Assembly: GCA_951406725.2 (NCBI GenBank)
Contig: OX597827.1
Coordinates: forward strand, 20,770,001 to 20,834,000
DNA length: 64,000 nt
DNA from: Octopus vulgaris
Taxonomy: Eukaryota
Direction: 5' to 3'
The notes under the pieces were generated by a model. That model did not search any database and was not told the origin of the DNA. It was given only the letters and a program-made list of their open reading frames with translations. Both the position numbers and the translations under genes were made by a program. The number at the start of each line of letters is the position of its first letter. Within the stretch, counting starts at the first letter, position 1. This document shows, in pieces, positions 11,527 through 47,498 of this stretch.

Positions 11527-11923
11527 AAGGCGTAGGTAGAAACTCTATAAGATGTACCCAGTGTAAGCTATGGATGCATAAGAGGTGCAGCAACATCAAA
11601 GGAAGGCTAAATGGGAAGATAGTTTTTGTATGTGGCAGATGCTCAAGAGCAATAAATACTGAAAATGTACAGAGAACAACTTCCGCCACATTCCAGGGAG
11701 AAAAACTAGAAGTAATTGATAGCTTCCGTTACCTAGGTGACCAAGTCAGTAGTGGGGCAGGGTGCGCTGAAAGTGTAGCTGCTAGAATAAGAATAGCCTG
11801 GGCAAAGTTCAGAGAGCTCTTACCCCTGCTAGTGACAAAGGGCTTCTCGCTCAGAGTAAAAGGTAGACTGTATGGCGCATGTGTACGAACAGCCATGCTA
11901 CATGGGCTGTGACTGCTGAGGAC
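11527..11923 (+). pseudogene. RTE-clade LINE reverse transcriptase fragment with Cys/His-rich insert
   Basis: ORF 11574-11912 plus upstream codons: CTQCKLWMHKRCS..FVCGRC..LEVIDSFRYLGD..ARIRIAWAKFRELLPLL..VKGRLYGACVRTAMLHG, typical of the RTE RT C-terminal/thumb region. Confidence 0.85.
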
Positions 11924-12292
11924 AAAATCTGCCTCTAAGATGCTGGCGAAGCAGCAGAAATGACTCCACCTGTTAATCACTCAGGACATGATGGCCTGTG
12001 TAAACCATGACCCAGACTTCATGAAGACCACCAACACTGGCGAAGAGACATGGGATTATTGTCTCTGCTCAGTGCGTTAGGTCATCTTGCATGGAAACAA
12101 AAATCTGACATGTGTGCACTACATGTCTTTAATCTCGGCATAATAGCTGGAATCTGATGTGGCCTATTGGTGTAAAATTTTTCACACAAGCACAGGAAGG
12201 GTGGTGTCACCTTCCACTGAAAGGATTTTGCCCATGCACCATTAGTTTTGGCAGGAAAAAAATATAGTCGGATACTTTCTGAACACACCTCG
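11924..12292 (+). mobile_element. Mariner relic (transposase fragment plus one TIR)
   Basis: Translation QQK*LHLLITQDMMACVNHDPDFMKTTNTGEETWDY matches mariner D.DFLK.IITGDETWVY. Terminal GATACTTTCTGAACACACCTCG+TA. Confidence 0.75.
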
Positions 12293-31075: not shown

Positions 31076-31283
31076 ATATGTTTGTGTGTCTGTGTTTGTC
31101 CCCCCAACATCACTTGACAACCGATGCTGGTGTGTTTACGACCCTGTAACTTAGCGGTTCAGCAAAAGAGAACCGATAGAATAAGTACTAGGCTTACAAA
31201 GAATAAGTCCTGGGGTCAATTTGCTTGACTAAAGGCGGTGCTCCAGCATGGCCACAGTCACATGACAGAAACAAGTAAAAGAG
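30760..31283 (+). mobile_element. SINE family A with a foreign about 100 bp insert in its microsatellite
   Basis: Head and 3' half match 790-1203. 30917-31018 is extra. Confidence 0.85.
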
Positions 31284-34983: not shown

Positions 34984-35447
34984 CAACAACAGGTTATAGG
35001 CAATATCAAGCTATAGGCAGCAACAGGTTAAAGGCAACAATAGGTTAAAGACAACTACAGGTTAAACGTAGCTACAGGTTATAGGCAGCAGCAGCAGACT
35101 ATAGGCAACATCAGGTTATAGGCAGCTGCAGACTATAGGCAACATCAAGTAATAGGCAGCTGCAGACTATAGGCAACATCAGGTTATAGGCAGCTGCAGA
35201 CTATAGGTAACATCAGGTTATAGGCAGCTGCAAACTATAGACAACATCAGGTTATAGACAGCTGCAGTCTATAGGCAACATCAGGTTATAGGCAGCTGCA
35301 GACTATAGGCAACATCAGGTTATAGGCAGATGCAGACTATAGGCAACATTAAGTTATAGGCAGCAGCAGACTATAGGCAACATCAGGTTATAGGCAGCTG
35401 CAGGCTAAGGCAACATCAGGTTGTAAGCAACAACAGGTCATAGGCAT
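34984..35447. repeat. Minisatellite with 34 bp unit made of two 17 bp subunits (TATAGGCAACATCAGGT / TATAGGCAGCTGCAGAC)
   Basis: Read directly. Homogeneous core about 35099-35420 with decayed edges. Confidence 0.95.
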
Positions 35448-35821
35448 ATTGTGTGTTGTAGTTGACGATGGACACAAATGACAGACTTTGATAATCAATG
35501 ACAACAGACTTGAAAACAGCAACAACGAAAGACAAGAAAACAATAACAAATGCCAGGTAACAGGGAGTTTTCAGTGTTTTTACCTGAGCAAAAGATTCCA
35601 GCAGCAGTGACTTAATGCAAAGTTTTGTTGGAGATTTTTGTTCTTCACCTGACCCTGGTGTGTTATCAACCTCAGAAAACTAAAAGGGAATCCAACCTAT
35701 GTCCATCAGACAATATCTAAACAAATCAACTGATCTCCTAAAATCTCTGTGGAAATCATTAACCCTCAACTATATCAACCCATTTCCCACTATTTCTGTG
35801 GCACCAATTACTTTATATATT

Positions 35822-36080
35822 GACTGGCTTCCGCACCAGTGGCGCATAAAAAGCACCAACCGATCATGGTCGTTGCCAGCCTCCTCTGGCCCCTGTGCTG
35901 GGGGCACGTAAAAAGCACCCACTACACTCACGGAGTGGTTGGCGTTAGGAAGGGCATCCAGCTGTGGAAACACTGCCAAGTCAGACTGGAGCCTGGCGCA
36001 GCCTCCTGGCTTCCCAGATCCCAATCAAACCGTCCAACCCATGCCAGCATGGAAAACAGACGTTAAACGATGATGATGAT
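35822..36080 (+). mobile_element. RTE tail
   Basis: Tail family. Confidence 0.88.
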
Positions 36081-36224
36081 TTTTTTGTATATAAACCACA
36101 GTTCAATTGCACCCCTTTCATGTTTATAATACTTTGATTCCATGCCCCAGCATGGCCAGAGCCAATGACTGAAACCAATAATAGAATAACTAAATACATG
36201 TCATGTTTCTTGTCATAAATACAA

Positions 36225-36450
36225 CTTTTGATCTTTTGCTTGTTTCGGTCATTAGACTGCGGCCATGCTGGGGCAGCACTGCCTTCAATTTTTAGTCAAA
36301 TAAATCAATGCCAGAACTTATTTTTTAAAAAGAATCTGGTATTGATTCTATTGGTCTTTTTTGCCAAACTGCTAAGTTAGAGAGATGTAACCATACCAAC
36401 ACCAGTTGTCAAGCAGTGGTAGGGGACAAGCATAGACACAAAGACACACA
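36225..36450 (-). mobile_element. SINE family A 3' half
   Basis: Reverse complement of ..GCTTGACAAC..CCAGCATGGCCGCAGTC.AATGACCGAAACAAG. Confidence 0.75.
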
Positions 36451-36514
36451 CACACACACACAGACATACATATATACATATATATACATATATATGTATA
36501 TATATAAAAAAAAA

Positions 36515-37029
36515 CTTTTATCATTAATTAATAAATCTTAGGCTAGCAAAAAAATTTTTAGAAAAATTATTTGCTACTAGTGGTCTAGCGAGAAGGAAAA
36601 ATTAGTCAATAGACTATATATTATTCATATAAAAATACAGTGTACATTTAAACACATAAGAGATGACCATAATAGGACATCTGACCCACTAGGAAGAGCA
36701 GTTAAACTCCAAACCACTAATAGTTGTAATTCTGAAAGGGAATGAGAAATAAAAACGTTTACCTATCTTTCCTGGACTATGTATAGTTTCGACAATCTTT
36801 TGTAAATAAAATAAAATGATTTTAATTTACAATTGGCGTTGCCATCTTCAGCAGGAAGCCAAGGCTAACATATAGGCACAAGGTGATAAAGACCATGCCT
36901 CGTGTTTATATGTTATAACTTTTCAAAATCCACCACGTACGCGCAGTTTTTTCGGCAGTAAATACAAGTGCCAATTTTCTTTCAAAATTAGCCAAAAAAG
37001 CCTTTTATCATTAATTAATAAATCTTAGG
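36515..37029 (-). mobile_element. Terminally redundant 487 bp hammerhead-containing unit (retrozyme / Penelope pLTR-like)
   Basis: Exact 28 bp direct repeat CTTTTATCATTAATTAATAAATCTTAGG at 36515-36542 and 37002-37029. TA-repeat flanks, no ORF and a central hammerhead. Confidence 0.65.
36769..36857 (-). ncRNA. Canonical type I hammerhead ribozyme (GUC site)
   Basis: TTCCTG CTGAAGA T GGCAA[..TTGTAAAT..ATTTACAA..]TTGTC GAAA CTATACATAG TC CAGGAA. Perfect 6 bp stem I, all core nucleotides present, cleavage predicted between 36775 and 36774. Confidence 0.8.
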
Positions 37030-37180
37030 GTATATATGTTTAAATATCACTCTCACTGAATGACTGACAATTATATTAAAGCATCTAACAGACATTAGGA
37101 TTACATCCAGCAGATAAAGACTTGTGCATATATGTTTCATATACGAGAAAAGTGTGTGTGTGTGTGTGTGTGTATTGATT

Positions 37181-38401
37181 TACAAGACTGGAAGTCCATG
37201 GCAACTCCTATATGTTGATGATTCTAGCCTCATAGCAGAATCTGTAACAGAATTAGAAAAGAAATTCCAAGTGTGGAAGCAGAACCAGGAATCTAAGGGT
37301 CTTAGAGTAAACTTGGCCACAACCAAAATCCTAGTAAGCAAGAAATCAGACAGCACCTGTCAGCCTTCTAGTAAATGGCCCTGCTCAATATGTAGGAAGG
37401 GTGGAGGCAGAAATTCCATTCAGTAATTCCCAGTGCAAGCTATGGCCATACAAGCGGTGCAGTGGAATAGTAAGAAGGTTAACGAAGAAAGTATTGTTTG
37501 TATGTGGAAAGTGTATGGGAGCCATAAAGACCACAGGTACACGGGAAACTGATTTGCTCAAATATCCCAGTATCTCTCTGGAAGTTGTAGATAATTTTTG
37601 CTACCGAGGTGACCTAATTAGCAGTGGAGGAGGTTGTGCAGTCAGTGTAGTTACTAGAATAAGAATAGGATGGAGAAAGTTCGAGCTTTTACCTCAGTTG
37701 GCAACCAAAGGTCTCTCTCTCTCTGTGTGAAGGGAAAATTTTAAGATGCATGTGTACACACTGCAATGCTACATGGTCCCTGAATGCAGAGAACATACAA
37801 AGACTGGAGAGGAATGAAGCCGGTATACTCCACTGGATGTGTGATGTCAGTGTGCATGAGTGAAAAGAGCATTGATGTATCGAGGGAAAAGTAGGGTATA
37901 AGAGGAATTATATGCAGGGTGCAAGAGAGGAGACTGGTTTGACCAGGTGATGTGAATGGATGAAGACAGTTGCATAAAGAAGTGCCAATCACTCAAAGTG
38001 GAGAGAAGTTGCGGAAGAGGGAGACCCAGGAAGGTCTGGAATGAAGTACTGAAGGTTGATCTCAAAATGTTGAACCTTATGAAGGAGATGACAAAGGACC
38101 GAGATATGTGGTGCATTGTTGTACTCCAGAAGACCCGCCCCACCAAAACAGAATTGCAATCCTAAAACCAAGGGGCCACCTAAAAAGCACTGGCAATGGT
38201 GCCACATAAAAAGCACCCCGTATACTTTGTGGAGTGGGAGTGATCAACATTAAGGAAGGGCATCCGGCCATAGAAACCAAGCGCCCAATCAGACTATGGA
38301 ACCTGATGTGGCCCTTGGCCTTACCAGTTCCTCTCAAACCAACCAACCCAAGCCAGCCATGGAAAACAGATGTTAAATGATGATGATGATGATGATGATG
38401 A
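37181..38401 (+). pseudogene. 5'-truncated RTE LINE: RT (YVDD), Cys/His insert, C-terminus, 3' UTR, (GAT)n
   Basis: PWQLLYVDD..KGLRVNLATTKILV..WPCSICRKG..QCKLWPYKRCSG..FVCGKC..VVDNFCYRGD..RIRIGWRKF, then GRGRPRKVWNEVLKVDL. Frameshifts and stops. Confidence 0.92.
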
Positions 38402-38575: not shown

Positions 38576-39039
38576 GCATGTGTGTGAGTGGGTGTGATTG
38601 TTAATGTGTTGTAAGCTTCAAGGGCAGAGCAAGTGACAGTAAAGAAATTGTTTACAATTTTTCACAGCCTTTTTTTTTACAATGTTTTTAATTAAAAAAA
38701 ACAAAAAACTGTGGTCTCTCCAATAACACCAATCTACCATATCCTGTGTTGGACCGGGCAATCCAACAAACACATTACACTGCCTCATATCATCTCTGTT
38801 CAACTAAAAACCACAAAAGTACATTATTCTTTTAGATTTCTTCAATGAAGAAGCTAATCTTCAAATGCCCCATCCCTTTAAGTTATGTCTAACCAAAAGG
38901 TCAACAGGTGTTTCAATACAAACTCATCTTCGACAAATTCAATTCTATCAGTGAAAAGAGACAATTCCCAAATGCTGCAGGATTCTAAGGGAAGCATAAA
39001 TTTTCAAAGAATTTTTTTAATAATCCTTTACTCCATTAT

Positions 39040-39256
39040 CATTGAAGATATTCTTACTATCAGAAGAGGGACCCTAGATGATGAGGGAGCCTCTATGAAG
39101 TTATGTGAACTGCTAGATATAGCAGTCAAATCTCACATTTCACCCTACCATTGAAGATATTCTTACTATCAGAAGGATCCTAGATGATGAGGGAGCCTCT
39201 ATGAAGTTATGTGAACAGCTAGATATAGCAGTCAAATCTCACATTTCACCCTACCA
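39040..39256. repeat. Recent tandem duplication of about 109 bp
   Basis: 39040-39148 is repeated at 39149-39256 with few differences. Confidence 0.92.
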
Positions 39257-47108: not shown

Positions 47109-47498
47109 GGTGCAGGAGTGGCTGTGTGGTAAGTAGTTTGCTTACGAACCATATGGTTCCGGGTTCAGTCCCACTGTGTGGCACCTTGGGCAAGTGTCTT
47201 CTGCTATAGCCCCGGGTCGACCAATGCCTTGTGAGTGGATTTGGTAGACGGAAACTGAAAGAAGCCTGTCGTATATGTGAATATATGTGTGTGTGTATAT
47301 GTTTGTGTGTTTGTGTTTGTCTCCCTAGCTGATGTGTTTACGTCCCCATAACTTAGCAGTTCGGTAAAAGGAGCCCGATAGAATAAGTGCTAGGCTTACA
47401 AAGAATTAGTCCTGGGGTCGATTTGCTCAACTAAAGGAGGTGCTCCAGCATGGCTGCAGTCAAATGACTGAAACGAGTAAAAGAGTAAAGAGAGAGTA
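47109..47498 (+). mobile_element. Full-length SINE family A
   Basis: GGTGCAGGAGTGGCTGTGTGGTAAG (box A), GGTTCAGTCCC (box B), a CORE-like block and a (GAGTAAA)-like tail. Confidence 0.9.

Follow-up and report, generated by a model that had tools for sequence, protein, structure and literature searches.

A 487-bp repeat unit with a type I hammerhead motif and a short terminal overlap, probably a decayed solo copy of a retrozyme-type family

The window (i.e., the whole 64-kb stretch of DNA analysed here) contains a unit of 487 bp (GC = 32%) that is followed directly by the beginning of a second turn of the same sequence (Table 1). The initial annotation had noticed an exact direct repeat of 28 bp with a period of 487 bp, and had stated that this repeat is not itself microsatellite; both observations hold, with 36515-36542 being identical to 37002-37029. 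Allowing for mismatches, the match widens to 39 bp at 92% (36507-36545 vs. 36994-37032, blastn E-value 2e-10). The figure of 28 bp is thus right for the exact match and too short for the overlap as such: because at 36543 the family (99% of depth in each of X1 and X3, two of the public runs surveyed below) has the letter that stands at 37030, and because the X1 junction contig is exact over 37003-37150, the true overlap spans at least 31 bp (to 37032 and 36545, respectively). The sole internal difference between the two overlap copies, at 36543, is about what would be expected from a decay of 2-3%, and is therefore not decisive on the type of template. The TA end of the overlap is common to element and target, and its left edge is ambiguous (an A run, or an A run plus GC).

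The same annotation had described the flanks as TA repeats. This is accurate for the left flank, where a real CA/TA microsatellite (36466-36506) is followed by nine A, but not for the right flank, which has a few TA units only. No second copy of the unit was found in the 64-kb window by a 13-mer scan, and none by blastn beyond an E-value of 0.09. The older host repeat whose tail forms the left target (36232-36440) has three other copies in the window, at 994-1191, 31085-31282 and 47335-47484. The host repeat at 794-1231 continues past the microsatellite, and the right flank of the 487-bp insertion is unrelated to the host repeat, which hints at a target deletion or at a prior truncation of the host repeat.

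Several other repeats were recorded in the window. A 17/34-bp minisatellite (~27 copies of the 17-mer) occupies 34984-35446, and a SINE-like repeat ending in (ATG)n lies at 35820-36093. Counting the self-match, the latter has 19 blastn matches in the window (71-88% identity for the 14 of 19 listed), and SINE-like repeats of this kind suggest that the window comes from an octopus-like animal. Two degenerate fragments, 37338-37900 and 11529-11924, are 72% alike over 221 bp and presumably resemble the end of a LINE ORF; the frame at 11529 has a weak PHD-finger match, below the cut-off. Finally, 39037-39256 is a two-copy tandem duplication of 106-109 bp (95-97% identity).

Table 1. Coordinates in the window of the 487-bp unit, its flanks and the elements of its hammerhead motif (-, minus strand;., no strand assigned).
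Feature	Position	Strand	Remarks
Full unit of non-coding repeat family	36515..37001	-	RNA sense is the minus strand
Left overlap copy	36515..36545	.	Exact core 36515-36542, single difference at 36543
Right overlap copy	37002..37032	.	31 bases into second turn; terminal TA also opens the TA flank
Left target	36440..36514	.	CA/TA microsatellite and A run; tail of older host repeat 36232-36440
Right flank	37033..37150	.	Short TA run (few units), followed by window-unique sequence
Segment just downstream of the cut	36582..36765	-	Summed contig depth ~10-50x that found elsewhere in the unit, in each of the four runs
Type I hammerhead	36769..36857	-	One motif, mid-unit, outside the overlap
Stem I, 6 Watson-Crick pairs	36857-36852 with 36774-36769	-	
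Core CUGAAGA	36851-36845	-	
Extra U after A9	36844	-	
Stem II, 5 pairs	36843-36839 / 36795-36791	-	AU-rich hairpin extension ~36834-36797
GAAA	36790-36787	-	
Stem III	36787-36776	-	Only 3 pairs beyond A15.1-U16.1
Predicted self-cleavage site, after GUC	36774..36775 (cut 36775/36774)	-	Position from hammerhead consensus
AUG from A9, extra U and G10.1	36843..36845	-	Opens only 7 codons (36845-36822)

The hammerhead motif of the unit was the single match to a type I descriptor on both strands of the 64-kb window, against a background of 0.033 loose matches per window and of 0/60 matches of equal quality and stem length in 60 random second-order Markov windows. As had been annotated, it lies on the minus strand and combines the CUGAAGA/GAAA/GUC core with a 6-bp stem I and an extended stem II. 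The word “perfect”, which had been attached to it, has to be dropped: there is an extra U at 36844, stem II includes a G-U pair, stem III is short, and the active fold is not the predicted minimum-energy one (estimated cost of 3.2-3.3 kcal/mol locally and 8.1 kcal/mol in the circle). No Rfam match reached the gathering score in the window, and the 17 matches with an E-value of up to 10 over 36400-37100 comprised 0 hammerheads and were mostly microsatellite look-alikes, a miss that is probably due to the long stem II and the extra base.

Within the family, the majority letter at 36792 (82% of depth in X1, 95% in X3) converts the G-U pair of stem II to G-C and would lower the cost of the active fold (modelled at 1.3-1.5 kcal/mol locally and 6.7 kcal/mol in the circle). 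The majority letter at 36782 (98-99%) turns stem III into a perfect 12-nt palindrome, for which a self-duplex of -15.9 kcal/mol is predicted, vs. -5.5 kcal/mol for the window's own copy. Variation in the core is confined to N7 among the 40 of 110 variant rows listed. The ribozyme and the predicted fold are kept across the family and are decaying in the window copy, which, with one ribozyme and ~2-3% private-looking changes, is probably unable to release a monomer by itself. Its features are those of the Penelope-like element (PLE) type, namely an extra base after A9, G10.1-C11.1, a long helix II, and a short stem III, which most relatives have as a palindrome; the signature of PLE-type hammerheads has been given as CUGANGAH-G, G10.1-C11.1, a long helix II and a palindromic helix III (passages in PMC4209133). 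One X1 contig, with a joint at 36814-36889, represents a subfamily variant that has a CUGAUGA core and differs on the 5′ side of stems II and I.

The RNA of the unit is predicted to be strongly folded, with a z-score of -5.65 for the circular fold on the ribozyme strand vs. -2.81 on the opposite strand (40 shuffles each), and of -4.69 for the linear fold. Family variation was confronted with this model using 30 of 40 variant rows (nine minor rows and one outside the unit were dropped), 14 of which were majority letters. The 12 majority letters outside the ribozyme would stabilise the fold by 9.3 kcal/mol summed, where random changes of the same type are expected to yield +9.5 ± 5.9 kcal/mol (p-value 0.002). 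Predicted pairs are broken by 5/30 variants, two of which are majority letters; compensatory changes on both sides of a pair were absent from the 30 variants tested.

The longest stop-to-stop frame inside the unit is 54 aa. Four short frames of the unit had 0 Pfam matches, and a 45-aa frame was related to 0/4 candidates among longer proteins (a weak search). The unit does not contain the single ORF with reverse transcriptase and GIY-YIG endonuclease that characterizes an autonomous PLE and, having no ORF, is not one itself; in the window, no PLE ORF was recognised among the 51 frames of at least 110 aa, of which three were scanned. A look by eye for tRNA-like promoter boxes found nothing convincing. 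The extension of stem II is formed by a U-rich GU...AG stretch of 34 nt (36830-36797, minus strand), the removal of which would put the AUG in frame with the 45-aa frame (~40 codons); this stretch is very short for an intron, probably is not one, and was set aside as such.

Part of the unit is present in 20 of the 24 listed public runs (four organism labels, 10 studies). To survey the family, contigs of four of these 24 runs (X1, X3, X7 and X14, from four studies) were aligned at 82% likeness on 36490-37150. X1, X3 and X7 are DNA-type runs with three organism labels; X1, 80% of which was read, may be the source sample of the window. In all, 3006 (X1), 2910 (X3), 1131 (X7) and 221 (X14) contigs were aligned, most of them less than 99% alike (672 of the 3006 X1 contigs are at 99% likeness or above). 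The unit is a diverse, dispersed multicopy family. Summed contig depth, as used throughout, is not equal to copy number and is inflated by branching, and the window copy's own changes near the ribozyme lower the mapping there. The depth profile of X14, which is RNA by guess only, roughly tracks those of the DNA runs, at ~0.001-0.02 of X3 per bin.

Junctions between distant parts of the unit occur in these contigs: among the 15 of 21 joints listed, five go back, six change strand and four skip. The former lead from 37032 to 36549 (X1, two contigs, with two letters in between that match 36546-36547), from 37032 to 36560 (X3), from 36999 to 36587 (X3 and X7), from 36999 to 36599 (X1) and from 36969 to 36550 (X3). 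Because other copies read through the 28-mer in this way (37032 back to ~36546), the 28-mer is element sequence and the order of the family is head-to-tail, closing on itself with a period near 487. X14 had no back-going joint among the 15 of 21 listed, and is neutral on circular RNA. In X7, a 499-nt contig (depth 5.64) appears to circle the unit once, from ~36635 to ~36633, its path having been pieced together from rows of equal depth (5.64). No piece spans the aligned stretch and no contig reaches far enough for two ribozymes in tandem, and monomers with other start points would yield the same joints as arrays.

Ends of the family were likewise mapped from the contigs. Loose ends that run into TA repeats cluster at 36627 (at least 27 contigs in X1, 37 in X3 and 4 in X14, among the 24 of 656 rows listed), 147 nt downstream of the cut, whereas the window copy starts ~110 nt further on, and the ends of the family are therefore not fixed. 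One X3 joint enters at 36603 while many contigs end at 36627, which may be compared with the optional 30-40 bp tail of PLEs and its two adjacent starts of reverse transcription. Position 36627 is likely the main start of reverse transcription in many relatives; for the window copy, the start of cDNA synthesis would correspond to the left overlap copy, at the 3′ end in RNA sense. Outside of the unit, 37042-37150 has no cover in X3 or X7, and is represented in X1 by one unbroken junction contig.

Coverage along the unit is strongly uneven in favour of the segment just downstream of the cut (Table 1), with summed depth in X1 dropping from 59780 to 2119 across 36743-36788. Such a drop could mean that most copies end at the cut, but thirteen X3 contigs continue past 36763 into sequence that resembles a diverged ribozyme, and the 24 of 656 rows listed include no loose end at 36774. 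The excess may reflect short copies that extend from the common start as far as the ribozyme cut, sister families in which just 36582-36765 is shared, or an abundant autonomous (Penelope) parent or very abundant short element. The 487-bp unit may accordingly be a side branch, of minor abundance, of a much commoner element with which it shares 36582-36765 only.

In our reading, 36515-37032 is quite probably a decayed solo copy of a non-autonomous, non-coding, non-LTR family of retrozyme type that depends on PLEs. The initial annotation had proposed reverse transcription slightly more than once round a circular or tandem template (retrozyme-like, or a partial tandem pLTR), leaving a unit permuted relative to the cleavage site. 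This proposal is supported by the 28-mer being internal in other copies and by the variation in ends, so that neither a plain target-site duplication nor the sharing of fixed ends by all copies, two of the three outcomes named there as contrary, was what we found; and the start/stop point of the copy does differ from the ribozyme cut, as it does from the common family end at 36627. Its narrower title, which spoke of the footprint of a circular RNA, is not supported: a circular template fits, but the same footprint is expected of an uncut tandem transcript and of a template jump. For the window copy, we consider a circle and an uncut tandem transcript to be equally plausible templates, each of them tentatively, and a jump between cut linear monomers to be rather unlikely.

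Mechanistically, minus-strand RNA would be made from tandem copies or by read-through, and would be cut to unit length by the hammerhead, probably as a dimer via the palindromic stem III, after which the unit-length RNA may be ligated to a circle. A PLE protein acting in trans would then nick a TA-rich target with its endonuclease, and its reverse transcriptase would prime internally, at a U-rich point near 36515 here and near 36627 in many relatives. The cDNA would pass the intact cut site, extend over one full turn and 31 or more bases, and have its end joined to the target at the TA microhomology. Penelope-type habits are seen in the family as AT/TA-rich insertion sites, partial tandems and inverted joints (the latter 6 of the 15 listed out of 21). 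It is tempting, if somewhat doubtful, to read all of this jointly as a closed 487-nt circle copied by a Penelope reverse transcriptase from several starts, with the 36627-to-cut segment as run-off from cut, unligated RNA. If true, dispersed insertions of one turn plus a few bases, both ends of each being copied from a single template, would directly record retrotransposition from a circular template in an animal genome, and the abundant segment of 150-180 bp would show cleavage in vivo; the circle-templated step has been proposed since 2014, and its demonstration was not met in the literature cited here.

Among the alternatives, the one that survives best, although we hold it to be unlikely, is a gutted PLE or long solo pLTR, i.e., a terminal region (5′ UTR, ribozyme and the initial 150-250 nt of the ORF) that an internal deletion has closed up, which would be an occasional by-product and not self-propagating. 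The AUG formed at A9-U-G10.1 is indeed at the place where the ORF of the anole PLE starts, but its frame closes after seven codons, the four short frames of the unit are without Pfam match, and one frame is without protein relative in the weak search mentioned above. Solo pLTRs are known (PMC3846280, in the passages cited), and the post-cut segment has 10-50x the summed depth of the rest; against this, variant contigs are numerous over every part of the unit, diverged copies retain its entire circular order and length (the 499-nt X7 contig and the X1 and X3 joints), and the family letters appear to favour a predicted fold around the entire unit. Both readings grade into each other, since retrozymes have been argued to derive from pLTRs (10.64898/2026.07.22.740005, in part).

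More than one unit of reverse transcription at the site would be superfluous if the locus had arisen at the DNA level, either from a satellite array shortened by unequal crossing-over or deletion, or from an array that was collapsed during assembly. Arrays would account for the head-to-tail joints just as well, and local tandem growth and loss have been proposed for retrozymes (10.64898/2026.07.22.740005, same passages), but an array would itself require a first insertion of more than one unit. Moreover, depth in X1 for the window letter at 36782 (47.9) nearly equals the 49.9 of the right junction contig, which is unique, in line with a single unit, a rough comparison in a run that may be the source sample, and we regard a DNA-level origin as very improbable. 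A viroid-like circular RNA that replicates itself independently, and of which a copy became integrated, would match the size, the strong branched fold predicted, the hammerhead and the circular permutation. Such an origin is nonetheless hardly credible given a ribozyme that is confined to one strand and of PLE type, the TA targets and inverted joints, the many genomic copies under several organism labels, and 0 matches to the exact ribozyme patterns in metagenome or viral contigs (a weak search, being restricted to exact patterns). An ordinary insertion with a 28-bp target-site duplication, for which it could be said that such duplications in retrozymes, when present, are stated to exceed 4 bp (PMC7229834, in part), deserves next to no credence and is refuted by the back-going joints, the 28-mer being continuous with the element on both sides in other copies and its two places both having high summed depth in X1, X3 and X7.

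Taken singly, the locus is an ordinary decayed copy, and reverse transcription of more than one unit on a circular or tandem template is already in print (passages in PMC4209133 and PMC7229834). The re-entry of animal retrozymes to the genome is still argued, in the parts of the literature cited here, from their co-occurrence or sequence likeness with Penelope (PMC7229834; 10.64898/2026.07.22.740005), and the present unit belongs to a purely non-coding family with Penelope-style habits, namely insertion at TA targets, reverse transcription that probably starts inside the element on the downstream side of the ribozyme, and inverted joints. With such varied start points, a genome-wide survey of family ends could test circular vs. 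tandem templates. No paper on a cephalopod retrozyme was found in the literature searched, where supplements or repeat libraries may list such ribozymes or this family; the giant squid has 235 annotated hammerhead-1 loci (PMC6962438, in part).

Compared with known systems, the unit is like plant LTR retrozymes in being non-autonomous and ribozyme-bearing and in its putative circular RNA intermediate. Plant LTR retrozymes, however, are described as carrying a type III ribozyme in each of two long LTRs, together with PBS/PPT and target-site duplications of 4 bp (passages in PMC7229834 and 10.64898/2026.07.22.740005), whereas the unit has one type I ribozyme in its middle and a terminal overlap of 31-39 bp without ribozyme, and is not a plant LTR retrozyme.

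Resemblance to PLEs goes further. According to the passages cited from PMC11167929, the ORF of the anole PLE starts at stem II, with the cut 26 nt past its start codon; reverse transcription begins on AT-rich targets at two neighbouring sites, one of them 111-118 nt into the ORF (i.e., an internal start ~85-92 nt and more downstream of the cut), and insertion in vitro does not require ribozyme cleavage. For PLEs, partial tandems and inverted copies are described as standard (10.1101/2021.04.23.441226; PMC3846280; both in part). The unit likewise has an AUG at the start of stem II, AT/TA-rich targets, a probable start of reverse transcription inside it and downstream of the cut, and partial tandem and inverted copies; with endonuclease-bearing PLEs and pLTRs it shares an extra base between 9 and 10.1, a long helix II and a palindromic helix III (PMC4209133, same passages). 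It differs from PLEs in having no reverse transcriptase or GIY-YIG ORF and in its length (0.49 kb vs. ~3 kb), and from the minimal form of the PLE ribozyme in a helix III of 3-4 bp, which is nearer to canonical invertebrate type I motifs.

The closest likeness is to metazoan non-LTR retrozymes, described as small AT-rich units with type I ribozymes, whose circles are expressed in coral, mussel and axolotl, and for which reverse transcription of more than one unit by PLE proteins has been proposed (passages in PMC7229834). For these elements, Li, Clavereau and Pollet 2026 (bioRxiv 10.64898/2026.07.22.740005, in the parts cited) report that solo monomers are common, give unit lengths of 51-972 bp and an origin from pLTRs, define an “active” retrozyme by tandem units with two or more ribozymes in a row, and found cleavage in only 1/9 predicted frog dimers tested. 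At 487 bp, the unit is longer than the circles of 170-400 nt in the cited passages of PMC7229834 and falls within the range of Li et al.; among molluscs, a precedent is known from mussel (350-390 bp, same two sources). Other differences are that the window locus is a monomer plus 31 bp with one ribozyme, that its stem II has a long AU-rich extension and an extra base follows A9, and that the ribozyme, known here from sequence, would not form freely in the predicted circle. Shared with metazoan non-LTR retrozymes are the type I hammerhead, a GC content below 50%, a small non-coding unit without long terminal repeats, the head-to-tail order, the many copies, a predicted circle that is strongly self-paired, and the solo state that is common among them. 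The locus resembles these retrozymes and most likely represents a solo copy of one.
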